NCBI GenBank assembly: GCA_021791755.1
Contig: JAJYWA010000001.1
Span: 5,416 to 69,415, forward strand
From: Actinomycetes bacterium
GTDB lineage: Bacteria; Actinomycetota; Acidimicrobiia; Acidimicrobiales; JAJZXF01
Direction of reading: 5' to 3'
Length of the DNA stretch: 64,000 bases
Every line of letters begins with the position of its first letter. The stretch's first letter is position 1. Below are positions 1,641-18,344 of this stretch, in pieces. The translations under genes and the position numbers were made by a program. The notes beneath the pieces are model-generated. The model was not told the origin of the DNA. It made no database searches and saw only the letters and a program-made list of their open reading frames with translations.

Positions 1641-2387
1641 GTGTCGACCCTCATCTTGGTACGCCATGGTCAGAGTACGTGGAACCAACAGAACAAGTTC
1701 ACCGGATGGGTAGACATTGACCTGAGCCCACAGGGAGAAGACGAGGCCAGGGCCGCTGGACAGCTACTGGCATCTGAAAAAGATATCCATATTGACGTTC
1801 TCCACACATCACTGCTCACTCGAGCTATCCGCACTGCAAACCTCGCCCTAGACGAGCTGGGGCGATCCTGGATCCCTATTCGCAAGCACTGGCGGTTGAA
1901 CGAGCGCCATTACGGAGCGCTCCAAGGACTGGACAAGAAGGATGCGGCAAAGCGCTTCGGACCGGAGCTGGTCAAGGCCTGGCGGAGAAGCTACGACGTA
2001 CCGCCGCCTCCGCTCGAAGCCGACAGCCCGCTCCACCCGCGCCACGACCCACGCTATGCAACACTTGCTCCCGAGGTCCTGCCTTCCAGCGAATGCCTCG
2101 CGAATGTGGTCACTCGAATCCTTCCCTATTGGCAGGATCACATAGTGGCGGATCTGCGAGCTGGGCTCACGGTGTGCGTCGTGGCTCACGGCAACAGCCT
2201 CCGCGCACTGGTAAAGCACTTGGAGCGCATCTCGGACACAGACGTGGTGTCGTTGGACATTCCTACCGGAATCCCACGTATATACCAGCTGTCGACCGAC
2301 AATCTTGAAGTCCTTGACGCCCGATATCTGGGAGATCCGGACGCAGTGGCCGCTGCAGCCCTGCAGGTTGCGCGCCAAGCTGGGTGA
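1641..2387 (+). CDS. gpmA: 2,3-bisphosphoglycerate-dependent phosphoglycerate mutase
   Basis: 248 aa. 'LVRHGQSTWNQQNKFTGWVD' (RHG catalytic motif), 'ERHYGALQG' and 'AHGNSLRAL' are hallmark dPGM segments. GTG start at 1641. Confidence 0.95.
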   Translation: MSTLILVRHGQSTWNQQNKFTGWVDIDLSPQGEDEARAAGQLLASEKDIHIDVLHTSLLTRAIRTANLALDELGRSWIPIRKHWRLNERHYGALQGLDKKDAAKRFGPELVKAWRRSYDVPPPPLEADSPLHPRHDPRYATLAPEVLPSSECLANVVTRILPYWQDHIVADLRAGLTVCVVAHGNSLRALVKHLERISDTDVVSLDIPTGIPRIYQLSTDNLEVLDARYLGDPDAVAAAALQVARQAG

Positions 2388-2399
2388 GGTGACCCGGGA

Positions 2400-3025
2400 G
2401 CTCGAACTGCCGGCCGAGTTGGAGCGCACCTCCTTGCGATCTGGACCTGCCGGAACGCAGCGTGTCCTCGTGCGCTCCGCGGCAAGAAGACTCCCGCCCT
2501 CAGGCGGAAGATGAACCCTGCGCTGGCGCTTCAGCTCCTTGCTGGGGCGCTCCAACGGGTTTGCGGTCCACGGCTGACGCCACTGAGAGCGCGGGAAGGA
2601 ACTGAACGCAAGGGTCTCTTCATTCGGCTCATCCACGAGACCGGGCATCTATGCATCGACGAGCCGCGCTCGGCGAACGTCGTTCTCATGTCGTTCCAGC
2701 AGATCCGAGATCTCCTCTCTTGTCGCTTGGGCAAAGATCGTCCAGAGGCGGCAGACATCATCTCGCGGCCGCCCTTGGGCACGGCCACGAGCAGGTTTCT
2801 CTTTGCGAAGTGGACTCGGCAGCGTTGATACGGACGCCTTGGAAGCAACGGCCGATGGCCGCGGCACGGCCGGCGGCTTAGGTCGCGATGGTCTGTGGAC
2901 GATGCCCGATGGCTCGACGAGGCGCCCTCGCCGGCACGGAGCACGCCGAGCAGCGTGGACAGGCGATGCTTTTCAGTGGTGATCACTGGGTCGTTCTCCT
3001 GCCATGCATTCGGCCACCAGGGCAT
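2400..3025 (-). pseudogene. IS256-family (Mutator-type) transposase remnant: C-terminal half, frameshifted
   Basis: Three minus-strand frames carry consecutive IS256 transposase signatures: 'YQRCRVHFAKRNLL..VPKGG', 'LWTIFAQATREE' and 'TLAFSSFPRSQWRQPWTANPLERPSKELKRQRRV'. The N-terminal half is absent and there are at least 2 frame changes. Confidence 0.7.
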
Positions 3026-3176: not shown

Positions 3177-3446
3177 ATGGAGGTCGGTATTAGAGAGCTA
3201 CGACGTAACCTCAGTGGCTACCTGGCCAAAGTTAGTGAAGGCGACGAGGTGATCGTCACGGACCGAGGTACCGCTGTCGCCAAGATTCTCTCGATCTCCG
3301 GTGACCGGGCCGGTGACCGGGCCTTCGACCGGGCAGTCGCGGACGGGCTCGTCACCCCGGCGTCGCACCGGGAGCGGAGTCGACCCGCTCGGCGGGTGAA
3401 GAGTAGTGCGAACGTAAGCGACCTAGTCGGCGACCAGCGTCGTTGA
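3177..3446 (+). CDS. Phd/YefM-type antitoxin
   Basis: 89 aa. 'IRELRRNLSGYLAKVSEGDEVIVTDRGTAVAKI' is the classic Phd/YefM N-terminal fold signature. Its stop overlaps the next start (TTGA at 3443-3446). Confidence 0.85.
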   Translation: MEVGIRELRRNLSGYLAKVSEGDEVIVTDRGTAVAKILSISGDRAGDRAFDRAVADGLVTPASHRERSRPARRVKSSANVSDLVGDQRR

Positions 3447-3874
3447 TCGTCTACTTCGAGACGTCCGCGATTGTGCCCATAGTGATCGAAGAGACGTCGA
3501 GCACTGTTGCGTCACGGCTCTGGGACGAAGCGGACCACGTCTTGTCATCACGTCTGGTCTACGCCGAGGGCCGCGCCGCGCTGGCTACGGCGCGACGTAT
3601 GGACAGCATCGACGAACAAGAGCTCAGAGAGGCCCTCGATGCCTTTGAGGCACTACACGACCAGCTCGACGTGATCGAGATCACCGAGGGGCTCGTCCGA
3701 GACGCTGGAGCCTTGGCCGAACAACTGAGCCTTCGGGGCCACGACGCCGTCCACTTGGCCTCAGCCCGCCTGGTAGACGACCCAGAGATGGTGATCGCGA
3801 CTAGAGACCAAGCTCTTATTGCAGCTGCCAGAGACCTGGGAATGGCTACAGCAGTCTGGACTCCCTCGTCCTGA
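3443..3874 (+). CDS. vapC: PIN-domain ribonuclease toxin
   Basis: 143 aa. 'IVYFETSAIV' supplies the first acidic PIN residue, and 'RGHDAVHLASA' matches the conserved D-A-x-H-L-A segment. Coupled to the upstream antitoxin. Confidence 0.88.
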   Translation: MIVYFETSAIVPIVIEETSSTVASRLWDEADHVLSSRLVYAEGRAALATARRMDSIDEQELREALDAFEALHDQLDVIEITEGLVRDAGALAEQLSLRGHDAVHLASARLVDDPEMVIATRDQALIAAARDLGMATAVWTPSS

Positions 3875-4042: not shown

Positions 4043-4700
4043 TTGGCAATGGCTGAAAAGGTTGCGAGACTGACTGAGGTGCAACAGCCGCTGCCGCTCT
4101 CTCCGGTCGGATCGGTTCAGATAGCGGACGGCATCGCGCTCTTCGAAGATGCGGATCACTCCGGCACGGTGTTCGTCTGGGGGCAGGCAACCTGGTGCTG
4201 GAGTGCGTCGGACCCGGCTATGCGCAGGCTCTGCGCTGTGCAACTCGTGAACGCGGACACAGGACGCCAGCGCGCCGTGTCGGGGTGGCCACGAAGGAGT
4301 CCCTCCTCGAGCTCGTCGATGCCGCCTGGGACCCTGGACGGAGCGTTGCCGGCGCCTGCGGTGAGCTCGATCTCTCCGAGAGGCGAGCGTACCGGTGGAT
4401 GAGACGAGCGTACCGGTGGATGGGGCGCCGGAAGATCTGGGAACTGCCGGAGCGGGTCGTCCGCCACAGCCTCATGCATGGATTGCTCGACAGCGACATA
4501 GCCACGATCGTGAAGCCCTACCCGCCTGGGAGGAGATCGAGCGCTCGCATCACAAGCTCACCTACCGGGCCTCTACCTCGGGCGCGTGTGGGCGTCGCCA
4601 TCGTCGCTGCGGCTTGCACCGACTGGCAAGGGGCTGCATCTCGAACCACCGCAGCCGGGCTTCTTCGTAGACACGCCATTCCCCGAGCGGGTCGAGCGCC
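4043..4700 (+). pseudogene. DDE (rve/integrase-core type) transposase remnant with HTH N-terminus, multiply frameshifted
   Basis: Three frames carry pieces: 'FVWGQATWCWSASDPAMRRLCAVQLV', an HTH-like 'RSVAGACGELDLSERRAYRW', and 'WEEIERSHHKLTYRAS', which resembles the 'DRSHRKLAHRGSY' segment of actinobacterial rve-type transposases. Contains a 21-bp tandem duplication at 4384-4425. Family assignment is from memory only. Confidence 0.45.
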
Positions 4701-5330
4701 GCCCGAGCCAGACTTCTACCTACGACGCGACACGCGTCACGAGGTGAAGTCAGACCTCACGTCATCGAGTGCCGTGTCAGCCGCAAGCAGGTCGTCGACA
4801 CCCTTGTCTCCGGTGAAGACCTCGTCCCAGGCCGAGATCGTCCACACCGACGCGCTGGACGCCGAGGGCCTTCTCGAGCTCGTCACGGCAAGAGCCAACG
4901 GGATCGTGAAACCCACGTCGACGACGCGACCCAGCCGATCCTGCTCGCTGCCTCGGCCAATGCACCACCGATGACCTAGGCATCGACGCGCGAGCTTATG
5001 GCGCTGTGCGCGATCGCCCAGCGCTTCGGCCGGCCGGACTTACCGCCGTCTGCCAGCGCCGGATCAGGCCTGCCTTCATGCCGGGATCAGCTGATGACTC
5101 CGAACAACGAGCACGACGGGAAAAACCCGGACATCCGCAACGCACGGGAGGCAGGCTTGGAATCACCGTGCCTTGGCCGGCTCGCCTATTATCGCAATCA
5201 AGGGCACCGGAACCCGACCGGGTGGGCCACGATATGTCGTCAGGTTCAACAAGACTCTCTGTCACGGAGTATGAACAGGTCATCTCGGGTTGACATCGGC
5301 ACGAGTGGAGGCAGGGAGTAAGGAGGGCTC

Positions 5331-6082
5331 ATGACAAACAGGCTGTCGATCTTCGTCGATGCCGGTCGCTTTGTCTCGGATCTAGCTACCTGGCTCTGTG
5401 ACATGTATCCCAACGAGGAGCTCCTGCGCACATACTGGTACGACGTCGCTAAGAACGTGTCGAGCACTGACCAACTCAATGTGGCTGCCTCCCTTTCGTC
5501 AAGATGCGCCTGGGTCACATCAACACCGCGGGCCAGCGGAAGGGGGTTGACATACTCATGGTCCAGAACTTAATGGTCTTGTCACAGAAGCGATCGATCC
5601 AACATGCAGTAGTGCTCTCGGGAGACGAGGATCTCCGGGAGGGCATCGAGTACGCCCAAGAACGCGGGGTACGGGTGGCGGTCGTCGGCATCGATGCGAG
5701 CGGCGATCTGAACCAGTCACCCGAGCTCGTGCGTGAAGCAGACCAGACACTGGTCCTTCCGGTCAATATCATCTCGAACAACCCCCACCGGACGCCGGCC
5801 GCTGTTCCGGTCGCACTGAGCGCCTCGGCGCCTCCGCCAATGTCCTCCTCGAATCGCCCACGTGACACAACGGCGCCCACAGCCGACAATCCGTTCGCGA
5901 CCCACGCAGTAGCCTTCACACATACCTGGCTCACGGAAGCCCCTCAGCGCTCCCTGACAAGCCTCGTCGAAGGGAGGCCGACGATTACGCGCGACATCGA
6001 CGCGCAGATGCTTCGCTTTGTGGCCTACCGTCGACAACGACGCCAGACTGACGGACATGCGAGGACGCACGCGGCGGAGTGA
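5331..6082 (+). pseudogene. NYN/LabA-like (DUF88) domain protein, interrupted by one frameshift near 5490-5500
   Basis: Frame 0 (5331-5573) gives 'LSIFVDAGRF...LLRTYWYD'. Another frame (from 5471) continues with 'QRKGVDILMVQNLMVLSQKRSIQHAVVLSGDEDLREGIEYAQERGVRVAVVG', the NYN core. An 'aaggaggg' RBS lies 6 nt before the ATG at 5331. Confidence 0.65.
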
Positions 6083-6155
6083 CCACGGATAACCTCTCCA
6101 GTCGTGTTCGCCAGGGCCCTGTTGGCCTTCGGGCGCAATCAGCAGCGAGTAAGCC

Positions 6156-6740
6156 ATGACTATCTATTTCACCGCCGACCAGCACTTCGGTCACCTGAAC
6201 ATCATCGAGTACTGCGGCCGGCCGTTTCACAGCGTCGGGGAGATGAACGCAATTCTCATCGCGAACTGGAACGCCGTCGTCGGCCAGGACGACACCGTCC
6301 ACGTCCTCGGCGACATCGCCATGGGTCGGCGGGAGGAGTCGATGCCACTCATCGGCCGGCTCGCAGGCCGCAAGATCTTGTACCCAGGGAACCACGACCG
6401 CTGCTGGTACGGCCACGGAGACCGTGCCCTCCAGCTCGAGCAGCAGTACCTCGACGCCGGGTTCGCAGAGATTCGCCAGGGTCCACGCACCGTGACGGTA
6501 GGCAACCGGGAGGTCATGGTATGTCACCTCCCGTACTACGGCGACAGCGACGACACCGAGCGCTACAGCAGGTTCAGACCTGCCGACAAGGGAATGTGGC
6601 TGCTCCATGGCCACGTCCACGAGAAGTGGCGCCAGCAGGGACACATGATCAACGTCGGCGTGGATGTCTGGAACTTCACGCCGGTCGCCGAAAAGGTGAT
6701 CAGCCGGCTGACGGACGCGACCCCGCTTGCGAGCTCCTGA
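6156..6740 (+). CDS. calcineurin-like metallophosphoesterase
   Basis: 194 aa. 'IYFTADQHFGH', 'VHVLGDIAMG', 'YPGNHDRCW' and 'LHGHVHEKW' are the four metal-binding motifs (DxH, GD, GNHD/E, GH). Confidence 0.85.
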   Translation: MTIYFTADQHFGHLNIIEYCGRPFHSVGEMNAILIANWNAVVGQDDTVHVLGDIAMGRREESMPLIGRLAGRKILYPGNHDRCWYGHGDRALQLEQQYLDAGFAEIRQGPRTVTVGNREVMVCHLPYYGDSDDTERYSRFRPADKGMWLLHGHVHEKWRQQGHMINVGVDVWNFTPVAEKVISRLTDATPLASS

Positions 6741-6841
6741 TGGGCCGTGCCTCGTGCCGACGACCATTCCCGCGACGATGCTCCAGCCGGACGTGCGGCG
6801 TCTCGATCGTCCCGGGAGTCTCTGTTCGGCCGCTAGGCGAC

Positions 6842-7228
6842 TTAGCTCAGGCTCAGCTCCCTCGCGGCTTCCGGCGCGATGGTCCTGCAGCTCGCCCGCG
6901 CAGCCACTCCTCCAAGCGGTCGCGACTGACCTGGTGGCCGCGATGGAGACGCGCTCACCACCAGCTGGAGATACTTGTAGTCGACATCGGGCGGGTACCG
7001 GAGCCTGCTGCGGACGCCGGGGGCCCACGCCCCTGGCAGATCGGGGTGGGCGATCTCGCTGGCTTCGTTGACCACCTGGCGAGGCATGGCAATTCGCCCC
7101 TCCTCTACCAGCTGCTCCAACAGCTTGAAAGCGGCCCACTGGTCCGACACGCTGATGAGCGTCTTGAAGTTGATCAGTGCAGAAGTGTCCACGATCCAGA
7201 CCGGATCTGGCTCAAGTCCCGGTAGCAA
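6842..7228 (-). CDS. DUF4411-like PIN-fold protein (putative toxin/effector partner of the ImmA protein)
   Basis: ORF 6842..7318. The N-terminal 'VWIVDTSALINFK' resembles a PIN-like first strand, and the position immediately after an HTH-ImmA gene is the usual DUF4411 context. The start is uncertain (TTG 7228 overlapping the ImmA stop, or GTG 7192). The C-terminal third is low-complexity. Confidence 0.5.
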   Translation of the reverse strand: MLPGLEPDPVWIVDTSALINFKTLISVSDQWAAFKLLEQLVEEGRIAMPRQVVNEASEIAHPDLPGAWAPGVRSRLRYPPDVDYKYLQLVVSASPSRPPGQSRPLGGVAARASCRTIAPEAARELSLS

Positions 7229-8372
7229 CGAGGCTCCGGAGATCGTCGACCTGTCCCGTGGTGAGATGCAGGCAGTCCGAGAGATCCGAGCGAGTGAGCC
7301 GGTTGTGCTCGGTAGCATCGATCAGGATGGCGGGAATTCGCGCTCCGAGCTCGCCGAGACGCTTCTCGGGGGCGGGCCGGCCCCCGCCGCCTCCCGCCTG
7401 GGCATTCCAGTCACGATCGGCAAGCTCGCGCTCAACCATTCCGTACAAGGACGCCGGCGCAAGGCGTAGCTCCTGGAGCCTCAGGCTGGCGGCGCGGGTG
7501 CTGACATTGAACCGTCCCGCAATCCGTCGAGCGGTCTCCACATCGCTGACCTGGGCGTGTTCCGACATCCCGAGACGCGACGTGACGGTACGCAAGGCGT
7601 CAGCCGGGATGAGGAGCTCGGCGGCGAACCGATCGCACCAACGCTCGGCGCCCACCTCGACGTCGCTCGGTACGACGAAACCGATACAGGCCGCGTCCGT
7701 GCGAGTGACGAGATGCCCGACCTCATGGAAGAGGGTGAAGATCCGCGCCGTCGGGTGGTAGGCGGTGTTGACCCCGACAATCGGGGCGTGATCGTCCCAG
7801 GCAGAAAAGCCCCGCACGCTCTCTCGACCGAGTTGTAGCTGAACCACGAGGATGCCGAGCTCCTCGAGGACTTCTCGCCACCGCCGGAAAGCCTCGCTCG
7901 GGCTCTCCCACGCAAGCTGCTCCGCTGGCGTAACCCCGAGCATCCGTCGCACGCTTGCCGCTGCATCAAGCGAGTTGTCGTTCGTCGAGAACTGAGGCAG
8001 CGCCACCGGGGCGTCGTCCTCGTCACGCAGCACCCACCCGACGATCTCTTGCAGCCGACGCGCCCAACGGATCTGGCGAACCTCTTCCTTCGACAGGCGG
8101 TGCCCCATCAGGCCAGGGACGGAGCGCAGGCTCGTCGGCAACCCTGCCCGGCTGGGCGGCTCGGGAAGGAAGAAGAGGGCAGTCGGTCGCCGAAGCAGTT
8201 CAGCGAGCCGGCTGAACTGTCCGCGAGTGGGATACGCCTCGCCAGCCTCCCAAGCGCGAACAGCGTCGGGCTCTACGTCCAAATCGGCAGCAACCTCGGC
8301 ACGCGTCAGCGCCGCTTCTTCACGAGCCCACACCAGCACCGAGCCGGTAATGGGCACCTCTCGTCGAGCCAT
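7212..8372 (-). CDS. XRE-family HTH fused to ImmA/IrrE (DUF955, COG2856) zinc metalloprotease
   Basis: N-terminal HTH: 'LVWAREEAALTRAEVAADLDVEPDAVRAWEAGEAYPTRGQFSRLAELL'. The HExxH motif 'FHEVGHL' is encoded at 7713-7727, followed by 'ERWCDRFAAELLIPADAL'. The ATG at 8372 lies 2 nt after the helicase stop. Confidence 0.85.
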   Translation of the reverse strand: MARREVPITGSVLVWAREEAALTRAEVAADLDVEPDAVRAWEAGEAYPTRGQFSRLAELLRRPTALFFLPEPPSRAGLPTSLRSVPGLMGHRLSKEEVRQIRWARRLQEIVGWVLRDEDDAPVALPQFSTNDNSLDAAASVRRMLGVTPAEQLAWESPSEAFRRWREVLEELGILVVQLQLGRESVRGFSAWDDHAPIVGVNTAYHPTARIFTLFHEVGHLVTRTDAACIGFVVPSDVEVGAERWCDRFAAELLIPADALRTVTSRLGMSEHAQVSDVETARRIAGRFNVSTRAASLRLQELRLAPASLYGMVERELADRDWNAQAGGGGGRPAPEKRLGELGARIPAILIDATEHNRLTRSDLSDCLHLTTGQVDDLRSLVATGT

Positions 8373-8374
8373 CG

Positions 8375-11300
8375 TCACAGCTTGTCGCCGATCGAGAGCT
8401 CTCCCAGCTGCTCGGCGATCGTGATTGGGGCAGGGGCGATGGCAAGCCATGCGATTAGGTGGACGTCGTCGTGGTCGATCTCCGGCAGGAGCTCAGGAGG
8501 CGGGCTCGGCTCCAGACCGAGCTCTGCCACCAGATCGGCAATGCCGCTGACCTGGTCGACCGGAAACTCGGACGAGGCCATGGCGGCACGCACAAGCTTG
8601 AGGATCCGCTCGGGGTATGGGGTCTCGAGGATCTCGACTAGCCGGTCGGCCTCTTCCACCGTCATCTCGGCAGGCCGGTGGTCCCTCACCAGCTCGGCTG
8701 CCCGCTGCATCGTGAGGGGAACGGGGGGAACCAGGTTGGCCGGATCGGCTGCCTTGTTCCAGCTCTCTACGATGTCGTCGAGCGCGTACCGCCACGCATC
8801 GAAGGCTCGCGCGTAGGTACCATCCGAAAGGACCCTCGGCGTGTCGAACCCTTCGGGCGGCCTGGCGGTGTCGAGGCAGGTAAGCGTGTCTGCCGTTACG
8901 GTCGGCGACGCTTCGTCGCTCAGGTCGACATAGCGGAACTGCGGGCGCTCGTAGTCCGCGACCCGGGCGCAGAACACGTAACCCGGACCGCTGCGCCCGG
9001 TCGTCATGCCGCTGCCCGTGCCCCAGGGCAGAGCCCTGATGCGCGCGTCGAGATCGTCGTTCTCGAGCGCTCGGCGCAGCTCCTGGCGGTACTCCTCCCC
9101 GCTCAGCGCCTGGCGTCCCGCGCCCCCTTGCTCGAAGATCCCCGCATCTCCGGCGCGTAGGCGCTCGATCTCCTCACGGGTCTCGGTGAAGACCACGTCC
9201 TCGGTCCTGCTGCCGGGCAGGATCTCGCCACCGATGCCCACCGAAGCGGCGGCCTGCTTGATCTTTCGGTGCAGGCGCTCTTCGAGACCGAGAAGCTCGT
9301 CGAGCTGCGCGTCGGGGAAGATGCAGCGAAGGAACACCTCCCGGTGCGGCGAGCCGATGCGGTCGACGCGTCCGTGGCGCTGGACCAGGCGCATCGGGTT
9401 CCACGGCAGGTCGTAGTTGACGATGTGTCGTGCCTGCTGGAGGTTGACGCCCTCGGCAAGCACATCGGTCGTCACCACGATGTCGTAGCGGTCCTCGTCT
9501 CGCCCGTCGGGCGCGTCGGTCGTTCTCGGGGCAAAGCCCCAGAGCACGTCGTCCTTCGTACCTCTGGAGCCAGAGATCGACGCAATGCGACCCGCATATG
9601 CCGCCAGCCTTGGGTCGGTCCGGGTGACCTCCTTCAAGTGCTCGGTTATCCACTCCACCGTATCGGCGAAGTAGCTGAAGACCAGCGCCTTTCTCTTGTC
9701 TCGGACGTCGTCGTCTCCGATGCCCTCGAGCGACGCTTGGTCTGCGATCGCCGCAAGGTGCTCGCCGAGGACCCGTAGCTTGGGATCATCCTCCCTGCGC
9801 ACCCGCTCAGCCTCCTCCGCGAAGGCGAGGAGAAGGTCCCGATCTCCCCGCACGTCGGCAGTGAGCGCGTCGGTATCGTATGCCGCCGCGTCGTCGAGCA
9901 CGTCGCGATGACTGTCAAGATAGTTGTCGTAGCCGTCGACGTCGTCGGAGTCGGTGGCCGCCCAGTCCGCCAGGGCCGCGCCGGTCGCCACCTTGCCCTT
10001 CTCCAGCAGAGAGAGGAAGGCGTCATGGCTATTGGCCATCTTGCGACACGTGCAGGCAAAGGCGTAGGCGGAGGACTCGAAACGCTTCAGGAGCCCGGAG
10101 CGCAAGAGGCCCGCGAGCTGCACCTCGTAGGCATCGGCAACGCCGTCCAAGCGATAACGCGAGGGCGCGTAGCGCCCCAGGGTGAGCACCTCCGGGTCGC
10201 CGACCGACCCGCCCGGGAGGGGACCGTCGAGCGCGTGAGCAAAGCGCTGGAAGAAGCCGGGCATGCTGTCATCGAGGTCGTAGGCAACCTTGATCACCCG
10301 AGGGGTAGGGAAGGTGATCGACACCTGACGGCCACCGATCTCGAGGCTGTCGCTCGGGTAGTAGCGCTTCACGAACGGCCGAGTCCGCCGTACAGCGACG
10401 GCATCGAGCACGTCGAAGAGGTACTCGGGCGAGAGGTCATCGGGGTTCATCGCCATCGCCGCGGCGAAGTGGTCTCGCAGCGAACGGATGCCCACGTCGG
10501 CGAACGCGCTGTCGCTCTTCAAGAAGTAGCCGAGCAGAAAGTAGAGATCCCAGAGGGAGTTGTTGACTGGCGTGGCGGTGATGAGCACTAGGTCCTTCGG
10601 CGGGGAGCCCGCCAGCAACCTGCGGAGCGCCGCCGCTCGCTGGGTCGTCGGGTTCCGCAGGTTGTGCGCCTCGTCGATGACCACCATCGCGTACTCGATG
10701 GGGTTGAACCGGAAGGCCTGCCTTGACCCCTCCGGGTTGAGCCGTCGGTCGCTGGCGAGCTCCTCGAACGAGCACGTCTCGACGCCGAGCTGGTAGGTGG
10801 CGAGCAGATGGCGCCATGGTCCGTCACGAAGGGTGGCCGGGGCTATGACGAGCACCCGCTGGCGGCGCTCCTCCACTGCGTGACGGATGAGCTCCCCGGC
10901 TAAGAAGGTCTTGCCGAGCCCGACCTCGTCCGCGATAAGCACCCCGTGGCGACCTTCGAGAAGGCGCCGCGCCCGGAAGAGCCCGTCGCGCTGGAACGAC
11001 GTCAGGTGGATACGGGAAGCGCCATCGGCCGCAGCCTCATCGGCCAGCTCGGCGCCGTAGCGCTCGAGGAGCATACGCAGGTAGACGAGCTGGGGTGGGT
11101 GAGCCTCGAAGCGCTCGGCGTAGAGCGCGGCGAGGTCGTAGGCATTGGCCCTCTCCCACAGCTCATCGAACCATTCGAGGACCTGGTGGACCACGTAGGG
11201 CTGGTACTGGCCGAGGTTGAGCTCGACATTGGTGGCGAGACCGGCGTAGGTGAAGTTCGAGCTGCCGGCGATCACGCCTTCTTCGTGGCTGGCGACGATG

Positions 11301-11752
11301 AAAGCCTTACCGTGGAGGAAGCCGTCCTCCAAGCGTCGCACCTCCACCTTCCCCGAATGAAGCCACTCGACGAGGCGCCGGGCGTCGGCGTCGGCTTCCT
11401 TCGTGAAGCCGAGGAGGTCCCGGTCCTCTGCCAGGGTTCGGGCATGGCCTTCGAGCACACGGCGCAGCTCGGCGCGCGCCGCGCGGGCCGGCGACGTGGA
11501 GTCGGCGAGGCAACGGACGGCGCGCTCGGGCACGGTCGGCTCTGCCCCAAGGAGGAGACGGACCTTCGCCACCTGGTCCAGCTCGTCAGCGAGGAGACTG
11601 TAGCCGCCGGGGTTGAAGTAGGCCGTTGCGATCGCGAGCTCCGGCGGATTAGCAAGCGTCTCCCTGAGATGCGCCAGGTGAGCGCAGATGGCATCGGCCA
11701 CCCGCTCGCCAGACCGGTTGGTGGCGAACTCCGGCTTCGCGGAAAGGCTCAC
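8375..11752 (-). CDS. PLD/HKD-nuclease domain fused to an SNF2-family helicase
   Basis: N-terminus: 'LHGKAFIVASHEEGVIAGSSNFTYAGL' (HxK...GSxN; HGK at 11306-11314). SNF2 core: 'LIADEVGLGKT', 'VIDEAHNLRN', 'ITATPVNNS'. Helicase-C: 'VTTDVLAEGVNLQQARHIVNYDLPWNPMRLVQRHGRVDRIGS'. The GTG start at 11752 overlaps the methyltransferase TGA (GTGA, 11749-11752). Confidence 0.9.
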   Translation of the reverse strand: MSLSAKPEFATNRSGERVADAICAHLAHLRETLANPPELAIATAYFNPGGYSLLADELDQVAKVRLLLGAEPTVPERAVRCLADSTSPARAARAELRRVLEGHARTLAEDRDLLGFTKEADADARRLVEWLHSGKVEVRRLEDGFLHGKAFIVASHEEGVIAGSSNFTYAGLATNVELNLGQYQPYVVHQVLEWFDELWERANAYDLAALYAERFEAHPPQLVYLRMLLERYGAELADEAAADGASRIHLTSFQRDGLFRARRLLEGRHGVLIADEVGLGKTFLAGELIRHAVEERRQRVLVIAPATLRDGPWRHLLATYQLGVETCSFEELASDRRLNPEGSRQAFRFNPIEYAMVVIDEAHNLRNPTTQRAAALRRLLAGSPPKDLVLITATPVNNSLWDLYFLLGYFLKSDSAFADVGIRSLRDHFAAAMAMNPDDLSPEYLFDVLDAVAVRRTRPFVKRYYPSDSLEIGGRQVSITFPTPRVIKVAYDLDDSMPGFFQRFAHALDGPLPGGSVGDPEVLTLGRYAPSRYRLDGVADAYEVQLAGLLRSGLLKRFESSAYAFACTCRKMANSHDAFLSLLEKGKVATGAALADWAATDSDDVDGYDNYLDSHRDVLDDAAAYDTDALTADVRGDRDLLLAFAEEAERVRREDDPKLRVLGEHLAAIADQASLEGIGDDDVRDKRKALVFSYFADTVEWITEHLKEVTRTDPRLAAYAGRIASISGSRGTKDDVLWGFAPRTTDAPDGRDEDRYDIVVTTDVLAEGVNLQQARHIVNYDLPWNPMRLVQRHGRVDRIGSPHREVFLRCIFPDAQLDELLGLEERLHRKIKQAAASVGIGGEILPGSRTEDVVFTETREEIERLRAGDAGIFEQGGAGRQALSGEEYRQELRRALENDDLDARIRALPWGTGSGMTTGRSGPGYVFCARVADYERPQFRYVDLSDEASPTVTADTLTCLDTARPPEGFDTPRVLSDGTYARAFDAWRYALDDIVESWNKAADPANLVPPVPLTMQRAAELVRDHRPAEMTVEEADRLVEILETPYPERILKLVRAAMASSEFPVDQVSGIADLVAELGLEPSPPPELLPEIDHDDVHLIAWLAIAPAPITIAEQLGELSIGDKL

Positions 11753-14700
11753 CGCACCTCCTTTGCCAGCCGGCCCATGTATGCAAGTGCAGCCTCGAGC
11801 CGGACCTGGTAACGCCATCCGAAATGGAAGGTCTCGAAGATATGCGTGAGGTCGGTCTCGTCGAGGCCGTAGCAGAGCGCGACAGCAGCGTCGAGCTCGG
11901 CGACGAGGTCCTCCTTCTCGGACGCTTTGACGCTGCCGACCGGCACGCCGACCATTTCTGCCCAGGCGGCATAGCGGCGATCGACCGCGGCGAGCCGACC
12001 GGCGATCTCCTCCACCCGGCGACGCAGCGGGTCCTTCCGGCTGGGGCGGGGGATAGGGAAGGCGTTGAAGAGGTGGAAGTTCACGTGCGTCTCCACCACC
12101 CGGCGCGCGTACCAGTCGAGCGGCGCCGAGCAGAGGACCCCCAAGAGGTAGGCCTGGTCGCGCTCGTCACCCTTCGGCCACAGGAGATAGGGAGCCTGAT
12201 TGGTGATCACGATCTCGGGCGGGACGAGCGCGGCGATGACCGTCCGGCTGTTGGTGCGGTTCGTGACGTCTCGGAAGGCGATACGCGGGTGGAAGCACGG
12301 CAACGTGGTGCGCTCGGCAGCCCAGTCGCGGGGCATCTCGGCGAAGGCGGAGCGCGCGGTGCGATGCTGGCGGAGGCGCTTGTGGTAGAGGACCTCGGCG
12401 ATCTGGTCTGGATCGACCCAGGCGTAGTAGACGCCGGTGTCGGGCTCCCAGATGTTGAAGGAGGCGCCCTTGTAGACCGGCCACATAGAGTCATCGGCGT
12501 CCTCGTCATCGAGAACGAAGTGCTTCTTGTCATTCGTCGCGTTGAAGTCGCCCTGAACGGGCCGACAATACCAAGCACCGGGAGTTCCGATCGACGGATG
12601 TGCTCGCAGCTTCAAGAAGATCCGGAGCGCCTGCTCCGTCGGAATGAGCGGGAACGACGCACCTTCAGACCAGCTCCGCAGGTCTGCTGCGGCGATCTCT
12701 GCAGGTGGATGCGTCAATCCGGCGCGGTAGGCGCCGAGGCTCGCGTAGGGGCCGCGAAGGTGGATGACGCCTGACTGACCGGGGCCTTTGCGGATGACAA
12801 GGAGACCGATGGTGTAGCGGTGCTCGGCATCGTCGAACACCCAACCTCCGCTGTTCAGCAGCATCGTGACGTCCTCGAAGGCGCCGCCGTCAAGAACAGC
12901 CTCGCGCCAGCGCGTCGATCCCGCGCCAGACAGGGCAGTGCGTGGGAGAACGACACCAATCGCGCCACCTTCGCGGACGAGCAGCCAGAAGCGCCAACAG
13001 AACGCCTTGTAGAGATCCGCATTGCCCTCATTCATCTGGGGGAACTGCCCGCACGACAGCAGGGCGCGGAGCTCGTCGGTCGTCGCCACTTCGGCCTCAT
13101 ACTCGCTCACGACGTCAGCTCGCTCCCGCCTCAAGCGAGTGATTTCGCGCTTCCGTGCGCCCGCAGAGAGTGAGCGAATTCCAGGAAACCGCAGTGACCA
13201 GAAGGAGTGCTCGTCGACCATCACCTCCTCCCAGGGCGGATTCCCCACGATAACGTCGAAGCCCGGCCGCTCCCGCAAGAAGACCTCCGGGAACACGACC
13301 GGAAAGTGCACCGACCCAAGCGATGCGACGAGAGCCCGCGCTGCGGCAAGATCCTCGTGGGCCGCGAAGCGCTCCTCGTCGACGCCGTAGGGGAGCGCGG
13401 CCTTTCCAATTCTTGCGGAAACGAGCAGGTCGAAGAGGTCCTTCGCTGGCTGGACCGCGGCCAGCGCCTCGAGGTGCGCCGATCGAGCAGCAGCCACCTC
13501 AATGGTCGTGGTCTCGCTGATAGCGGCCAGGCGCCGTAGCGCCTTCTCCGCCCGGGCGAGGAATTCCATGAGCTGGCCATAGAAGAGCGAGTCATGGCCA
13601 GCCTCGGACCCCGGCTCCAAGACGGCGACCGCCTCGTCTATCGTACCGATGCCGGTCAAGCTGTCGCCTTCGACGAGGTTGTGATCGAGGAACGAGAGCG
13701 GCAGGCCGGGCACGAAGGTGTGGATCCAGACCGCCAGCCGGGCGAGCTCCACTGCGATGCGGTTGCGGTCGACCCCGTAGATGCAGCGCCGGGCCACCTG
13801 CCTGCGGAGCAGGCTGGTCGTCTCGATCTCCACCCCGTCGGCGAGCTCGCCAAGTGCACTGAACGCCGCGGTGCGCAACCGTTCGAGCTCGGCGAGAACA
13901 GTTGGTACCGGGTGCAGTGATAGGAACGCCGAGAGCCTGGCCTCGATGCGGTCGACAGCGGCGACGAGAAAATGACCTGAGCCCATGGCGAGATCCACGC
14001 AGCGAAAGTCGAAGAACCGGTCGGCCGCACTGGCTTCGTCCCCGGCGTCGAACAGGGCCCGGAGCGATGCGATGTGGTCTTCGAGCGCCGCGTCGAGCGC
14101 GTGGTCGAGCAGGTGCTCGACGGCGAAGGGCTTCGTGAAGTAGGAGCCGGTTGCCTTGCGGGCCCCCGATCGGTTGTGGAAGTAAACGTCGCCTGCGTGG
14201 ACGACGACGTTGCTATGTCCAGTGGCTGCAGGGATGAAGTTCCCCTGGGAGTCGAGAGCGAGGTCGTCCGGGGCAACAGACAGGCGCGACTCGAGCAGGC
14301 CCTCGTAGATCGTGCCGAACTCGCGAACCGACAGGCTCCGGAAATCAACTGGCCCAACGACGCCGTCAGGACCGACGTCTACCAGGAGCGCGGTGAGGGC
14401 CGGGCCGAACGCTGCGTCAGACAGCGAGAGCGTGGCGATCGCGGCTCCCGCGGGATTGACCTGCGGGTCGTCGCTGAACAGGCCACCGTCGTAGGGGGGA
14501 ACACCCCACCCGGCGTTGCCAGCTTCGACCGCGTGCCAGAGCGCTCGCACGTCGTCCCACAGGTCCGTCGCCTGGTCGTCGAATGGTGCGGTGTCCTTGG
14601 CTCGCCACGCGGCAAGCCGGCGCGCCAGGCGCTTCAACGAATGGTCGTTGTACCTGCCGTTAGTGCGGTAGGGGAGAAGATCCTTGTCCTCGGCATAGGC

Positions 14701-15810
14701 GATGAAGAGGAGCCGGAACAACACCACGAGGGTCTCCTCGTAGGCGGCGGCGAGCTCCTCCTCGTCGGGGTCGGCCCGATGTGCCCCCCGGGCCACCGCG
14801 GTAGCAAGCTGCGGCACGGCTTCGAAGTAGATGCGGTCGCGCAGCCGCGCCCCGAGTTCGGCGGCGAAGTCTGCGGAACGATCGAGGATCTCCTCGATGG
14901 TCCCTCTGTCTTCCAGCGCTCCGGCGCCGAACAGGAGCGGCACGAACCCCGCGTGGTCTTCGGGGAGGAGCGCCAGGTCTACTTCGACATAGGTGTCGGC
15001 CCGCCCCTTGCGTCCCACACCCACCTCGACCCGGGCCGAGTACAGCCGCACCTGCCGGGACCGCGTCAGCAGCACCCACGGGAGCCCTTCTCGGTCGGCG
15101 AGCGCGAGCGCCTGGGAGACAGGGCTCGTGCCGAACCGTTCCCCAGCGGCATCGAAGGCCTCCCCCTCGTCGAGGAAGATCGCAACGGCGCGCTTGGCAT
15201 CCCCCGCCTTGAGGACCGACGACGTGATCCCGAGAGGCTCCACGCTGAACCCGAGCCGCTCGACGAGCGCCCGACCACGCAGCGTGAGCACTTCCTTGCC
15301 TCGCGCGCAGGCCTGGCGCCAGTCCGATCGCTGAGGCACGCCGTGGCGGAGCTCCTGGGTGGCAAGAAGCCCGCTGTTGCGCAGCCCTGGGAGGTCCGAG
15401 CCCACCTCGGGAAGCATGGCCACGAGCAGCCGCACGGCGGCATGCCGGCTGGGCTCGGCCAGCGCAGCACTCGCCAGGCGCTCCACCTGGGACAGCTCCA
15501 GATCAGCCACGAGCGGCGGGTTCTCGCCGACTACGCCGCAGACGGTGACCCGGACACCGTCGTGGTCCTCGTAGGCGACGACGAGGAGGAGTGGGCTGGG
15601 CCGACGGCCCTGGCGGAGCTTCCAGAGAGCCCTCACGTCGTCGGCCTTCGGGCGGCGCCGGCTGGTGGCCAGCGCGACCTCGAGCGCATGGTCACCCTCG
15701 CCAAAGAATAGCATCTGTGGAGCTATGCCGATCGGGGCCGCGTCGGGCGCCGACCACCGACGAGGTTCGCGATCAGCAAGGAAGTCGTCCGCGATGGTCT
15801 GCGCCCTCAA
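11749..15810 (-). CDS. large Eco57I/PglX-type N6-adenine DNA methyltransferase (type IIG-like architecture) with an uncharacterised ~330-aa N-terminal domain
   Basis: 1353 aa. Motif I is 'CVDLAMGSGHFLVAAV' (about 13968-13997) and motif IV is 'VIVGNPPWEEV' (NPPW at 13231-13242). The C-terminal target-recognition-like region reads 'RIAFRDVTNRTNSRTVIAALVP...LLGVLCSAPLDWYARR'. TTG start at 15810, with 'ggggag' 11 nt upstream and an in-frame TAG just before. Confidence 0.9.
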   Translation of the reverse strand: MRAQTIADDFLADREPRRWSAPDAAPIGIAPQMLFFGEGDHALEVALATSRRRPKADDVRALWKLRQGRRPSPLLLVVAYEDHDGVRVTVCGVVGENPPLVADLELSQVERLASAALAEPSRHAAVRLLVAMLPEVGSDLPGLRNSGLLATQELRHGVPQRSDWRQACARGKEVLTLRGRALVERLGFSVEPLGITSSVLKAGDAKRAVAIFLDEGEAFDAAGERFGTSPVSQALALADREGLPWVLLTRSRQVRLYSARVEVGVGRKGRADTYVEVDLALLPEDHAGFVPLLFGAGALEDRGTIEEILDRSADFAAELGARLRDRIYFEAVPQLATAVARGAHRADPDEEELAAAYEETLVVLFRLLFIAYAEDKDLLPYRTNGRYNDHSLKRLARRLAAWRAKDTAPFDDQATDLWDDVRALWHAVEAGNAGWGVPPYDGGLFSDDPQVNPAGAAIATLSLSDAAFGPALTALLVDVGPDGVVGPVDFRSLSVREFGTIYEGLLESRLSVAPDDLALDSQGNFIPAATGHSNVVVHAGDVYFHNRSGARKATGSYFTKPFAVEHLLDHALDAALEDHIASLRALFDAGDEASAADRFFDFRCVDLAMGSGHFLVAAVDRIEARLSAFLSLHPVPTVLAELERLRTAAFSALGELADGVEIETTSLLRRQVARRCIYGVDRNRIAVELARLAVWIHTFVPGLPLSFLDHNLVEGDSLTGIGTIDEAVAVLEPGSEAGHDSLFYGQLMEFLARAEKALRRLAAISETTTIEVAAARSAHLEALAAVQPAKDLFDLLVSARIGKAALPYGVDEERFAAHEDLAAARALVASLGSVHFPVVFPEVFLRERPGFDVIVGNPPWEEVMVDEHSFWSLRFPGIRSLSAGARKREITRLRRERADVVSEYEAEVATTDELRALLSCGQFPQMNEGNADLYKAFCWRFWLLVREGGAIGVVLPRTALSGAGSTRWREAVLDGGAFEDVTMLLNSGGWVFDDAEHRYTIGLLVIRKGPGQSGVIHLRGPYASLGAYRAGLTHPPAEIAAADLRSWSEGASFPLIPTEQALRIFLKLRAHPSIGTPGAWYCRPVQGDFNATNDKKHFVLDDEDADDSMWPVYKGASFNIWEPDTGVYYAWVDPDQIAEVLYHKRLRQHRTARSAFAEMPRDWAAERTTLPCFHPRIAFRDVTNRTNSRTVIAALVPPEIVITNQAPYLLWPKGDERDQAYLLGVLCSAPLDWYARRVVETHVNFHLFNAFPIPRPSRKDPLRRRVEEIAGRLAAVDRRYAAWAEMVGVPVGSVKASEKEDLVAELDAAVALCYGLDETDLTHIFETFHFGWRYQVRLEAALAYMGRLAKEVR

Positions 15811-16492
15811 CTCGAGCTCGGCTCCCCGAAAATACGACGTGGGCTACAGCGCATTCATTCCAGCGTACAAGACGGGTACGACACGGACGGGGACCACGAA
15901 GCTGCGATGAGCGCATCGCGTAATCCCTCATACCTCGTCGCGTGGCCCACACTGCCGTGCTCGTCCGCAGCGGCGCTCGCTCGCGCCAGGCACGCCGGTG
16001 ACTTACAACGGCGGAACAGGGCTTGCAACAGGACTCCGACCAGCGGAGTGATCTCACTCGACGGGCCTCAGTGTGGTCGTTCCCACGCGCGCACCCCGAT
16101 CGCAGGCGTTGCAGCAGACCTACCCGGCTTCGCCGACGCCGATCTGATCGAGGGGCCCGGAGCTCGACGCAACTTGCGGGCGTAACGTTCAAGGTCATCC
16201 GCGTACAGACGCGTCGTGCGTCCCTTGCGCGTTACCCACTGTCTATTCGCGGACGAGGTGGTGTAAGGCGTCCAGTGGGTTGTCCGGGCTATTGAGCGTG
16301 TTCAACAGTCAGCGTCGGGGACCCAACCGGTCCAGAGCGTCCACCGGCCGCCAGAGGCGAGCCCGTGAGACAAAGAAAGCCTCGGAGGTCTGAGTTGCAC
16401 GCGACGCTGTCGCACACCCGCCGAGCGCGGAGCTAGCGCTGGCGAAGTGAAACAGGCTCTCCTATCCGACGTGGTGGCCGGGCCAACCAGGC

Positions 16493-16885
16493 CTACTCGA
16501 CAATCCGGCGCAGGCCTTGGGCGATCTCGGCGACGGGTTGCCGGCCGGCCGCCAGGCCCATCACGAAGCCGTACACGTCGTCGTTCGACGCGTGAGTTGC
16601 CTCCACGCCGTTGAGCTGCAGGAACACGGCGGTGGCCAGCCACCCGAGGCGCTTGTTGCCATCGACCAGAGGGTGGTTCTTCACAGTGGACTGCAGCAGG
16701 GCCGCCGCCTTGAGCCAGATGTCCGGGTAGGCATCCTCTCCGAAAGCGCTGGAGCTCGGGCGGGCAGCCGCCGACCCGAGCAGACCGAGGTCGCAAACCG
16801 GAGGCGGGTCACCGAGCAGCTGCGCGGCCAGGGCGACGAGGTCTTCGACGTCGAGATACTCGATGCCGCTTTGCTCAGCGGCCAA
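16493..16885 (-). CDS. doc: Fic/Doc-family toxin (death-on-curing)
   Basis: 130 aa. 'NHPLVDGNKRLGWLATAVFLQLNG' matches the Doc variant of the Fic motif (HxFxDGNKR). Confidence 0.9.
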   Translation of the reverse strand: MAAEQSGIEYLDVEDLVALAAQLLGDPPPVCDLGLLGSAAARPSSSAFGEDAYPDIWLKAAALLQSTVKNHPLVDGNKRLGWLATAVFLQLNGVEATHASNDDVYGFVMGLAAGRQPVAEIAQGLRRIVE

Positions 16886-17078
16886 GGCGGTCCAGGGCCT
16901 CGGCGTGGACCTCCATCACACGCTCGGCCGCGTGGCTAACGCGGTCACGATGCTCGGCTCGCGCCACGTAATCCCGGACTGCCTGGCGCGCTGCTTCTTG
17001 CATCGAGATCCCGTCGAGGTCGGCCCTTCGCTGCAGGGCCGCTTGCTCCTCGTTCGTGAGCCTCAGAGTCATCGCCAT
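16875..17078 (-). CDS. ribbon-helix-helix antitoxin of Doc
   Basis: 67 aa. 'MTLRLTNEEQAALQRRADLDGISMQEAARQAVRDYV' is an RHH/CopG-like pattern. It overlaps the doc start by 11 nt. Confidence 0.75.
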   Translation of the reverse strand: MAMTLRLTNEEQAALQRRADLDGISMQEAARQAVRDYVARAEHRDRVSHAAERVMEVHAEALDRLGR

Positions 17079-17106
17079 AGGTTCTATGGTATCAAGTTGA
17101 TACCAT
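17075..17106 (-). promoter_or_regulatory. nested palindromic operator at the RHH/Doc operon start
   Basis: A 15-bp palindrome 'ccatag gtt ctatgg' (17075-17089) covers the ATG itself. It overlaps a 21-bp perfect palindrome 'atggtatcaa g ttgataccat' (17086-17106). The stretch is locally AT-rich. Confidence 0.5.
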
Positions 17107-17669
17107 CAGGGCATCGCCTACTTCTGTTGCTTCGACGCCTTTACACTTCGGCGCTTGTCGCTCCTTGGTGGCTGCCCTGATAGCGGACGATGGCATTCGA
17201 ACAAGCCGTAGACGGTACCGCCAACTCTCTGCTGGTCGCCTCGCGGGCAACCAGCACGACGCGGATCCCCTTGGTTGCTCTCATCCGGCGGCTGAAGTCG
17301 GACATATTGCGGCTGCTGGCAGACACCTCCATCAGTAGCTAGGCGCCGTTGACCGATACAGCTTGTCCGTGGTCTGCAGCGACCACAAGAATTCCACACT
17401 GATGACCGGCTCGGAGACCTCCTCGGCGTGCTTGCCGGCGCCGCTCGGAAGGAGAAGTTCGACGCCTACCGCAAGCTCGGACTCCAGCTGACCCACGACC
17501 CAGCCCGCAGAGAGCGACCGACGAGTCGCACCTCAGGCCCGACGGCAACAACTCGCCGCCACGATGCCGACGGCAAAACACGTGCCTGACCTCGGGCGCG
17601 CCGACCAAGCCGCCCGAACGCGTGGGCCAGAGTCAGTGAATGGAGGACTGATGGCTCTGCACGGACTTT

Positions 17670-17696
17670 CCCCTGTGTCAGGAGTCCTGGAGTCAG
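17670..17696. repeat. 27-bp repeat, copy B (inverted partner of 3925..3951)
   Basis: 'cccctgtgtcaggagtcctggagtcag'. It lies inside the zinc-ribbon-coding part of a serine-recombinase remnant. Confidence 0.9.
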
Positions 17697-18189
17697 GTGC
17701 GGATGCTGTCGACGTGTCATCCAGGGCGCGGTCGGCGGTCGGCGGACCTACTACCGCTGCAAGTTCGCCGACGAGTACGCCCTCGCCAGCGAGCTCAGGC
17801 ACCCCAAGTCGGTCAACCTCCACGAAGACGGCCTAGTACACCCAGCTCGATGCCTGGCTGGCTCAACTCTTCGGAGAGGAGCACCCGGACGACACCTGCT
17901 CGGCCATGACCGAGGCCATGGCCGAGCAGCCGGCCATCGTTGCCGAGTGGATCAAACAGGTGACCAAAGAACGAGCGTCGGCTGAGGCGGAGTTGGAGCA
18001 GGTACGCCTCACCTCGACCGGGCAAATAAGCATCGCCCAGCTCCGTGCCGAACTGGAAACGGTCGGCGGGCTCCTCCCCTGCCCGAGTCGAGCAACCCAG
18101 TACCTGAAGGCCCGCTTCTACGAAGAAGTCGGCCTCGAAGGCACTTACGATCCCCACGCGAAATTCCTCGAGGCACGTGTCCTCAACGG

Positions 18190-18208
18190 TCGTGTCGGAG
18201 GGGGGACT
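18190..18208. repeat. 19-bp direct repeat = displaced copy of the tRNA-Leu 3' end (att-like)
   Basis: 'tcgtgtcggaggggggact' is identical to 20986-21004. Confidence 0.9.
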
Positions 18209-18307
18209 CGCTGCAACCCGCAATACGAGGTAGGGACCACCGAACTGTGGCTCTAAGCAGCCTGAACAGGTAATACGATGAGACTCACCGGACGGTGCTC
18301 GGGGATT

Positions 18308-18343
18308 GCTGCAAGACTGCCTAGAAGTGTGTAGTCTTGCAGC
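18308..18343 (+). promoter_or_regulatory. 11-bp inverted repeat abutting the antitoxin start codon (operator or RBS-occluding hairpin)
   Basis: 'gctgcaagact' (18308-18318) and 'agtcttgcagc' (18333-18343) are separated by a 14-nt spacer. The ATG is at 18345. Confidence 0.45.
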
Positions 18344-18344
18344 C

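Follow-up and report, generated by a model that had tools for sequence, protein, structure and literature searches.

Toxin–antitoxin modules that combine a helix-turn-helix (HTH) domain and a zinc peptidase of the ImmA/IrrE type with a PIN-like toxin were predicted computationally as three-component HTH/DUF955(COG2856)/PIN-like modules, with the toxin assigned to the DUF4411.1 subfamily (Matelska et al. 2017, PMC5499597). A pair of this kind lies at positions 6842–8372, on the minus strand, of the window, the 64,000-nucleotide (nt) stretch of contig JAJYWA010000001.1 (Actinomycetes bacterium, assembly GCA_021791755.1) analyzed here. The first-pass annotation of this DNA recognized it as a member of a predicted toxin–antitoxin class, which is borne out by the published prediction and by the experimental characterization of VapBC52 (PMC13273310). 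The pair is very probably a decayed VapBC52/RosmerTA-like module, whose antitoxin gene is intact, whose toxin gene has been broken by a deletion of ~3 kb, and which has been captured behind a restriction-like operon. The family itself is already known and now experimentally characterized; what is new is the clade-specific join to a methyltransferase/HKD–SNF2 operon, together with the mapped deletion.

Closest described systems

VapBC52 of M. tuberculosis (Rv2515c/Rv2514c) is the best characterized member of the family. VapB52 begins with an HTH-like N-terminal domain, followed by a zinc peptidase whose site (HEXXH, Glu) is occluded by a Cys "switch"; its C-terminal domain lies over the active site of the toxin, and single-stranded DNA (ssDNA) triggers its self-cleavage at an FR motif located at the junction between the N-terminal domain and the peptidase (PMC13273310). 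VapC52 is a tRNA-cleaving toxin that provides resistance to a mycobacteriophage; furthermore, the N-terminal domain of VapB52 structurally resembles the controller protein C.Csp231I, and non-cognate antitoxins are able to neutralize VapC52 (PMC13273310). PDB entry 9vzy comprises three chains of antitoxin sequence and six of toxin sequence, a composition that fits the VapB(delta23)C52 crystal of PMC13273310, and its chain 9vzy_D ("DUF4411 family protein") is matched by the DUF4411 profile at E=0.0039. The window pair shares with VapBC52 the antitoxin HTH, the HEXXH motif, the Cys located 9 residues past the second His, a hydrophobic-Arg motif where the N-terminal domain meets the peptidase, a C-terminal helical tail, the DUF4411 PIN family of the toxin, and the order of antitoxin followed by toxin with overlapping genes. 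Unlike VapBC52, the window toxin is cut after ~92 codons, and the module is joined to the 3′ end of a methyltransferase/helicase operon without a leader.

The same arrangement, with DUF4411.1 downstream of a fused HTH-DUF955 protein and four conserved acidic residues in the toxin, was described in the computational prediction (PMC5499597). DUF4411.1 was reported there to be monocistronic in most Actinobacteria, whereas in the Acidimicrobiia examined here DUF4411 is paired with ImmA in nearly all cases. RosmerTA (RmrT/RmrA) likewise features an HTH plus ImmA-type zinc-peptidase antitoxin with a swappable toxin (10.1101/2022.05.11.491447; PMC10440598), and PIN-like toxins are known as partners of the ImmA/Rosmer antitoxin node (PMC10440598); the RmrT toxins that have been tested, however, come from other families, such as a membrane-depolarizing toxin. 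Assignment to RosmerTA by the PADLOC definition was rejected: an RmrA antitoxin is present, whereas an adjacent RmrT toxin is not recognized, either in the remnant or in three full-length DUF4411 relatives, none of which had a PADLOC match. A literature search on 9VZY and RmrA/RmrT returned nothing further beyond PMC10440598.

CapP/CapH of the cyclic-oligonucleotide-based antiphage signaling system (CBASS), ImmA/ImmR of ICEBs1 and IrrE/DdrO share the M78 domain and a DNA-damage- or ssDNA-activated protease logic. These proteases act on a separate repressor, whereas a protease of the VapB52 type cuts its own fused HTH in cis; the window pair has no separate repressor gene beside it. Operons that unite toxin–antitoxin-type modules with restriction-like genes have also been described in defense islands, including three PIN plus HsdM/HsdS operons and one island of a toxin–antitoxin and a type I restriction-modification (R-M) system (PMC5499597). 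The window differs from these in that the partner is a type-IIG-like methyltransferase plus an HKD–SNF2 helicase, the junction measures 2 nt, and the toxin is decayed.

An intact antitoxin gene

The module and the break within it comprise the following features (relatives are denoted by L numbers for loci and P numbers for proteins).

7212..8372, minus strand: HTH plus zinc-metallopeptidase (ImmA/IrrE, M78) gene, 386 aa, VapB52/RmrA-type antitoxin (Pfam, PADLOC, PDB, alignment)
6952..7228, minus strand: 5′ remnant of a DUF4411 PIN-like toxin gene, ~92 codons (83–87% amino acid identity to full-length DUF4411 proteins of 165–185 aa; blastn ends)
6842..6951, minus strand: non-homologous read-through tail, ~36 codons (6951–6845) plus TAA stop (~72% to L005 3377–3484)
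6941..6952, no strand: deletion junction, with ~2,988 bp missing relative to the L005-type arrangement

The HTH-ImmA/IrrE protease proposed in the first-pass annotation is confirmed at 7212–8372 by Pfam HTH_3/HTH_31 (E~1e-6) and Peptidase_M78 (E=5.6e-16) domains and by an HEVGH motif. The protein matches PDB 9vzy_A at E=7.7e-37 over residues 9–353 and 15 PADLOC RmrA models (best 6.4e-26, residues 11–376), while its M78 domain additionally matches CapP (3e-14, PADLOC) and IrrE (3dte, E~1e-3). It was aligned with 21 relatives (374–389 aa) and the 356-residue VapB52 fragment of 9vzy_A. The cysteine-switch position is kept, with Cys exactly 9 residues past the second His of HEVGH, as is the glutamate of ERWC; 22 sequences show conservation of both HEVGH...C and ERWC. 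Where VapB52 carries its FR cleavage motif, the window protein has LR and its relatives have [LF]R. Its length falls within the family range and no degenerative changes are seen; judged from these motifs, the antitoxin/sensor gene looks fully intact.

A truncated toxin gene

The small open reading frame (ORF) begins with a TTG at 7228, which has a GGAG 5 nt upstream and overlaps the 3′ end of the ImmA gene (stop 7212–7214) by 17 nt. Taken alone, it matches Pfam DUF4411 at E=0.068 over profile positions 2–50 of 159, and PADLOC gave no match to the remnant below E=0.01. A database search retrieved 58 homologues, nearly all of 160–185 aa with PF14367, which cover just the first ~69% of the query. 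In an alignment of 37 sequences, the window protein follows the family to "...DVDYKYLQLV", beyond which all resemblance ends. D20 and E61 (numbering of the full-length relative P0008) are retained, and the nearly invariant A113-D114-P115, V134-T135, D137, D140 and A151-C152 are lacking. When four full-length relatives were compared with 6500–7400 by tblastn, residues ~1–93 were found at 84–85% identity, and a very permissive search (word size 2, E up to 100) did not find the C-terminal half in any frame of the window. The DUF4411 partner ORF proposed at 6842–7228 is therefore genuine in its first ~92 codons and otherwise a 3′-truncated remnant rather than a complete gene, and the earlier suspicion that its low-complexity C-terminal third could be non-coding was well founded: the last ~36 codons are read-through into DNA that lies ~3 kb downstream in L005. 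A frameshift in place of a deletion was also considered, given that the peptides "RVSIAAT" and "RDRLEEW" faintly resemble "...RISIATACDRLG"; it was rejected because tblastn gave no match and the tail maps to distant L005 DNA.

An AlphaFold2 model of P0008 (mean predicted local distance difference test, pLDDT, 88.1; predicted template-modeling score, pTM, 0.84) adopts a PIN fold, and its best matches among solved structures are PIN proteins, namely PAE2754, M. tuberculosis VapC toxins and protein-only RNase P. On this model, the window stump ends within helix 90–103, and helix 114–126 and strands 131–134 and 158–160 lie beyond the break. The stump would thus be unable to form the PIN sheet or the acidic pocket, and nuclease activity is very unlikely given the loss of D114, D137, D140 and part of the PIN sheet.

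The deletion and its flanks

The blastn alignments of L001, L003, L004, L005 and L026 all end at window base 6952. L005 matches both sides of the junction: its positions 3–388 correspond to window 7337–6952 (84% identity), 3377–3484 to window 6940–6826 (~72%), and 3606–3667 to window 6831–6771 (81%). The equivalent of L005 389–3376 (2,988 bp) is missing from the window, and in L005 this segment holds DUF4411 codons ~94–170, a 689-aa ORF without a Pfam match and a 183-aa PRiA4_ORF3 protein. The tail of the small ORF reads unrelated DNA because the ~3 kb deletion joined formerly distant sequence. The same truncation is carried by the Logan contig L002 (SRR13203224), which was assembled separately and matches 2,335 nt of the window (8978–6644) with 99.96% identity, so that an artifact private to one assembly is unlikely. 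L002 is the sole sequence with this truncation and is identical to the window there, with no substitutions on the post-truncation branch.

The region 3′ of the cassette is a hotspot of variation. In L005, the 689-aa protein (644–2713) starts 20 nt past the toxin stop and is found in that locus only; a PRiA4_ORF3-family protein follows DUF4411 in L005 (2710–3261) and L003 (2118–2648), and a TnpB/Cas12f-like gene follows it in L001. In the window, an NYN-domain protein (5504–6082, plus strand) is followed by a 194-aa ORF (6156–6740, plus strand), and the latter converges on the deletion junction. This ORF has no Pfam match; by reading of its sequence, it appears to carry metallophosphoesterase-like motifs (DQHFGH, GD, GNHD, GHVH).

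Operon layout and restriction-like genes

Four consecutive ORFs on the minus strand of the window encode the methyltransferase, the helicase, ImmA and the small ORF, and the parts upstream of the pair are as follows.

11749..15810, minus strand: Eco57I-family/type-IIG-like DNA methyltransferase, 1353 aa (Pfam Eco57I 1.2e-12; PADLOC REase_MTase_IIG 5.7e-279)
8375..11818, minus strand: PLD/HKD plus SNF2-family helicase, 1147 aa (Pfam PLDc_2, SNF2-rel_dom, Helicase_C; PADLOC "HKD+Snf2" 3.5e-46, DrmD-like)
8373..8374, minus strand: helicase/ImmA spacer, 2 nt ("cg"), with an identical junction in L001 and L004

The pair does stand at the 3′ end of an R-M-like operon, as first proposed, with the PLD/HKD plus SNF2 helicase and the Eco57I/type-IIG-like methyltransferase upstream. 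Coordinates and sequence also bear out the claimed 2-nt gap: the TGA stop of the helicase at 8375–8377 is followed by "cg" and then by the ImmA ATG at 8372–8370. The REase_MTase_IIG match (PADLOC) spans residues 59–1342 of the 1353 in the methyltransferase, which displays the type IIG feature of a large single-chain enzyme with an Eco57I-family N6-adenine methyltransferase region; the adjoining HKD (PLD) helicase could be the source of the nuclease for such a system. Although DrmMI-like (2.7e-68) and DrmD-like (8.6e-37) matches occur, they are the only components of this kind in the four genes, and DUF1998/DrmB was not found in the operon with Pfam or PADLOC. Since class 1 of DISARM (defense island system associated with restriction-modification) has a DrmA and DrmB core accompanied by DrmC/DrmD/DrmMI, the operon does not belong to it.

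Co-expression of the pair with the helicase is plausible. L001 and L004 share the 2-nt junction, whereas stand-alone relatives possess their own leader. Upstream of the methyltransferase, the gap to the Fic gene (15811–16492, ~680 nt) contains Arg-rich ORFs with poor codon bias only, none of them convincing, and a leader of ~680 nt is unusually long for a defense operon.

Relatives and recurrent decay

When GTDB genomes were scanned for the pattern of the DUF4411 alignment, 32 loci were found, mostly in Acidimicrobiia and some in Chloroflexota. An ImmA homologue lies directly upstream of DUF4411 in essentially all loci with upstream DNA (tblastn, 33–87% identity), and the pair is conserved in about 30 loci. 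A complete DUF4411 toxin with the conserved acidic residues is present in L001 and L003–L024, and not in the window.

Homologues of the window helicase/methyltransferase occur in three loci only (L001, L002 and L004). The L001 locus, from an Acidimicrobiales metagenome-assembled genome (MAG), begins, as analyzed here, at methyltransferase codon ~188; over the 8.3 kb from there to the DUF4411 break, its nucleotide identity to the window is 75%. It has all four genes, including an intact toxin gene (185 aa). L004 contains the helicase 3′ end, the same 2-nt junction as the window and an intact toxin, and L002 represents the window strain. The linkage with methyltransferase and helicase genes anticipated in the first-pass annotation therefore holds in the closest clade (L001, L004) and fails in ~25 more distant loci, where the pair occurs without these genes and its upstream neighbors are unrelated. 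These neighbors include housekeeping genes (FAA hydrolase, PP2C, MFS, SBP_5, ferredoxin, MeaB, SDR, HAD), and integrases are among them in L010 and L012. Other defense-type neighbors are also seen. In L006, a type III-like R-M operon (4691–8769; N6_N4 methylase split in two ORFs, ResIII helicase overlapping by 4 nt) ends 97 nt upstream of the pair, which is an independent association with a non-homologous restriction system; L022 contains a methyltransferase-HNH fusion 512 nt upstream of ImmA, and L025 contains an AAA_21/SMC-like protein and a Schlafen/AlbA_2 protein upstream of it.

In stand-alone loci, the distance from the preceding gene to ImmA is 27–590 nt (at least 66 nt in all but L027), and a leader motif with a TAGNNT-type element is common to several of them. 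The subclade form of this motif, "...TAGCCT/TAGGCT...GCTTTCC...", has no counterpart in the window. The string "TTGACGATT", common to the L006 leader and the helicase 3′ ends of L001 and L004, is not conserved in the window and is regarded as a coincidence. Because ~25 distant loci carry the pair without methyltransferase/helicase genes, it is an autonomous mobile module that often lands in defense islands and has been captured here, rather than an integral R-M component. Leader loss and the operon-tail position are found only in the clade of the window.

Toxin inactivation recurs in the family, as expected for toxin–antitoxin modules under relaxed selection. L025 (8827–10339) retains an intact ImmA gene next to a DUF4411 gene cut at residue ~115, and P0002 has suffered an internal deletion of the catalytic core (EDADP...VVTDD). 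L026, from an Acidimicrobiaceae MAG, is syntenic with window 30810–20988, tRNA included. Past the synteny there is a short match to window 17577–17403 and, ~370 nt on and ~600 nt after the tRNA-Leu, a twice-frameshifted DUF4411 fragment with just the last ~30 nt of ImmA (L026 9319–10383). Helicase and methyltransferase homologues are absent from the L026 locus, which is an independent decay state of the same locus. Separately, L025 bears a second ImmA C-terminus fragment (15462–15671), 5 kb downstream on the other strand.

Proposed mechanism and alternative explanations

In relatives with an intact toxin, the antitoxin consists of the HTH N-terminal domain, the zinc peptidase with its cysteine switch and the C-terminal domain, and the toxin is a DUF4411 PIN-type RNase encoded by an overlapping gene. 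By analogy with VapBC52 of M. tuberculosis, the antitoxin may hold a toxin dimer inactive until ssDNA from damage or phage replication leads the peptidase to remove its own N-terminal domain, which would free the tRNA-cleaving toxin. In one Acidimicrobiia clade, the module appears to have been captured right behind the methyltransferase and the HKD–SNF2 helicase and is probably co-transcribed with them. In the window genome, the ~3 kb deletion has taken the catalytic half of the toxin and two downstream genes, leaving an intact and probably expressed orphan antitoxin/regulator beside a ~92-codon stump with ~36 unrelated codons; going by the structural model, this stump is not expected to fold as a PIN domain or cut RNA. 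With the catalytic half of the toxin lost, the module presumably adds no abortive-infection layer in the window strain. The first-pass proposal that the protease gates a PIN nuclease cannot operate in the window, where the PIN gene has no catalytic C-terminal half; the gating model could apply to relatives with intact toxins.

Several observations weigh against this explanation. The window proteins are only ~30–35% identical to VapBC52, and the mechanism is transferred across that distance; moreover, the C-terminal domain of the window antitoxin is shorter (about 33 vs 59 residues). Co-transcription of ImmA with the helicase is inferred from gene spacing only. Scans for sigma-70 promoters and intrinsic terminators around the pair and upstream of the methyltransferase gave nothing above shuffles; scans of this kind are uninformative for an actinobacterium of 64% GC. 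The retained 92 codons show no obvious degeneration and keep all invariant N-terminal residues, with one L-to-P change at a conserved position, so the deletion is taken to be recent, and the stump may have a residual role, such as antitoxin binding. Finally, the window and L002 may represent the same population, and the truncation may not be fixed.

A broader proposal for the L001/L004/window clade is that an ssDNA-sensing VapBC52-type module has been coupled translationally and transcriptionally to the operon, so that its dose tracks restriction and it serves as an abortive-infection backstop on failure of restriction; the window would just have lost the effector and kept the sensor/regulator, possibly as an operon regulator or for anti-addiction immunity. 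This proposal is speculative and on balance unlikely.

Among the alternatives to a decayed module, the one that survives best, though still improbable, is that the orphan HTH-ImmA protein has been kept either to regulate transcription of the operon in the way of a C protein or to neutralize homologous toxins that enter the cell ("anti-addiction"). ImmA is full length and undegenerated despite the loss of the toxin, L025 is in the same state of intact ImmA and truncated toxin, and both the resemblance of the VapB52 N-terminal domain to C.Csp231I and the neutralization of VapC52 by non-cognate antitoxins (PMC13273310) are consistent with such roles. For the C-protein-like autoregulation suggested in the first-pass annotation, that structural resemblance is the only support. 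The 680 nt upstream of the methyltransferase yielded neither an inverted repeat nor a C-box-like element, and the deletion looks recent, so that the intactness of ImmA may reflect too little time to decay. The search covered inverted repeats of at least 10 nt (7-nt seed) in 15750–16520, where shorter or degenerate boxes would be missed; inverted repeats were likewise not found in 6700–7000. Unlike a C protein, which stands alone, the window HTH forms part of a 386-aa protease.

A functional two-layer defense operon, in which the protease senses restriction failure and releases an active PIN nuclease from 6842–7228, has a lower probability still and is regarded as very improbable. The tight junction is conserved in L001 and L004, ImmA has all its catalytic motifs, VapBC52 provides phage resistance through an ssDNA-responsive antitoxin (PMC13273310), and the pair lies beside unrelated R-M genes in L006 (type III-like mod+res) and L022 (methyltransferase-HNH), so that an arrangement of this kind may hold for relatives with an intact toxin, such as L001. 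The window PIN gene, in contrast, is without residues ~94–170, three conserved acidic residues and part of the central sheet, no complementing toxin fragment is present in the 64 kb, and most relatives carry the pair without an R-M neighbor. It is hardly credible that the truncation is an assembly or sequencing artifact, that is, a chimeric join at 6952 in a genome that really has a complete DUF4411 gene: the stretch around the break does vary among relatives (downstream of DUF4411, L001, L003 and L005 are not alike), yet L002 spans the junction and reaches the convergent downstream gene, and both junction sides match one relative (L005) collinearly, as expected for a simple deletion.

Implications for annotation and defense surveys

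Automated annotation pipelines will probably label the 116–128-aa ORF as hypothetical or as a DUF4411 toxin, and a defense-system census would count a dead toxin–antitoxin module. The locus also offers a natural example of an autonomous cassette that stands beside differing restriction systems (type-IIG-like in the window, type III-like in L006, methyltransferase-HNH in L022). Such a cassette is able to lose its leader and join an operon, and in repeated cases it is the toxin that goes first, the antitoxin remaining (window, L025). With their intact toxins, L001 and L004 represent reasonable material for work on layered immunity from an ssDNA sensor and an R-M-like operon, whereas the window copy is unsuitable.

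Neighboring elements

A tRNA-Leu(GAG) gene at 20988–21072, the sole Rfam match in 6000–21500, lies together with a 2.8-kb integrative remnant 10–14 kb upstream of the pair. The 3′ end of the tRNA-Leu is repeated as a perfect 19-nt direct repeat (18190–18208 and 20986–21004), and the 2.8-kb element bounded by these repeats (18190–21004) contains a recombinase Zn_ribbon_recom fragment (ORF 20121–20723); it resembles what is left of a small integrative element inserted at the tRNA. It is doubtful that 6952–20988 as a whole forms one tRNA-Leu island: the 19-nt repeat bounds 2.8 kb only, and the Fic-to-ImmA block is absent from L026.

Two further toxin–antitoxin modules occur in the window. The first is a Phd/Doc-type pair at 16493–17078, composed of a Fic/DOC toxin gene (16493–16885, minus strand; Pfam Fic 5.8e-14) and an overlapping upstream ORF of 67 aa (16875–17078, minus strand) that, from its sequence, looks like a ribbon-helix-helix antitoxin. 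A copy of the Fic pair with 82.5% identity is found in L006 (13338–14226), 3.3 kb downstream of ImmA-DUF4411; the two modules therefore co-occur in two genomes, with their order differing. The second consists of a PhdYeFM antitoxin (3177–3446, plus strand) and a PIN (VapC) toxin (3443–3874, plus strand) that overlap by 4 nt, and it is thus a second PIN toxin–antitoxin module, apparently intact, located 3 kb from the decayed one.

Toward the start of the window, a tandem array at 1526–1629 comprises about 8 copies of a 13-nt unit (CCTGACGCCTCTT/CGG) between the Iso_dh and His_Phos_1 genes. An ORF at 1848–2648 (minus strand) shows a short match to the C-terminal part of Mutator-family transposases (profile positions 311–351 of 379). 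It overlaps the His_Phos_1 ORF at 1641–2387 (plus strand; E=6.5e-36), and the transposase match is probably a remnant or spurious.

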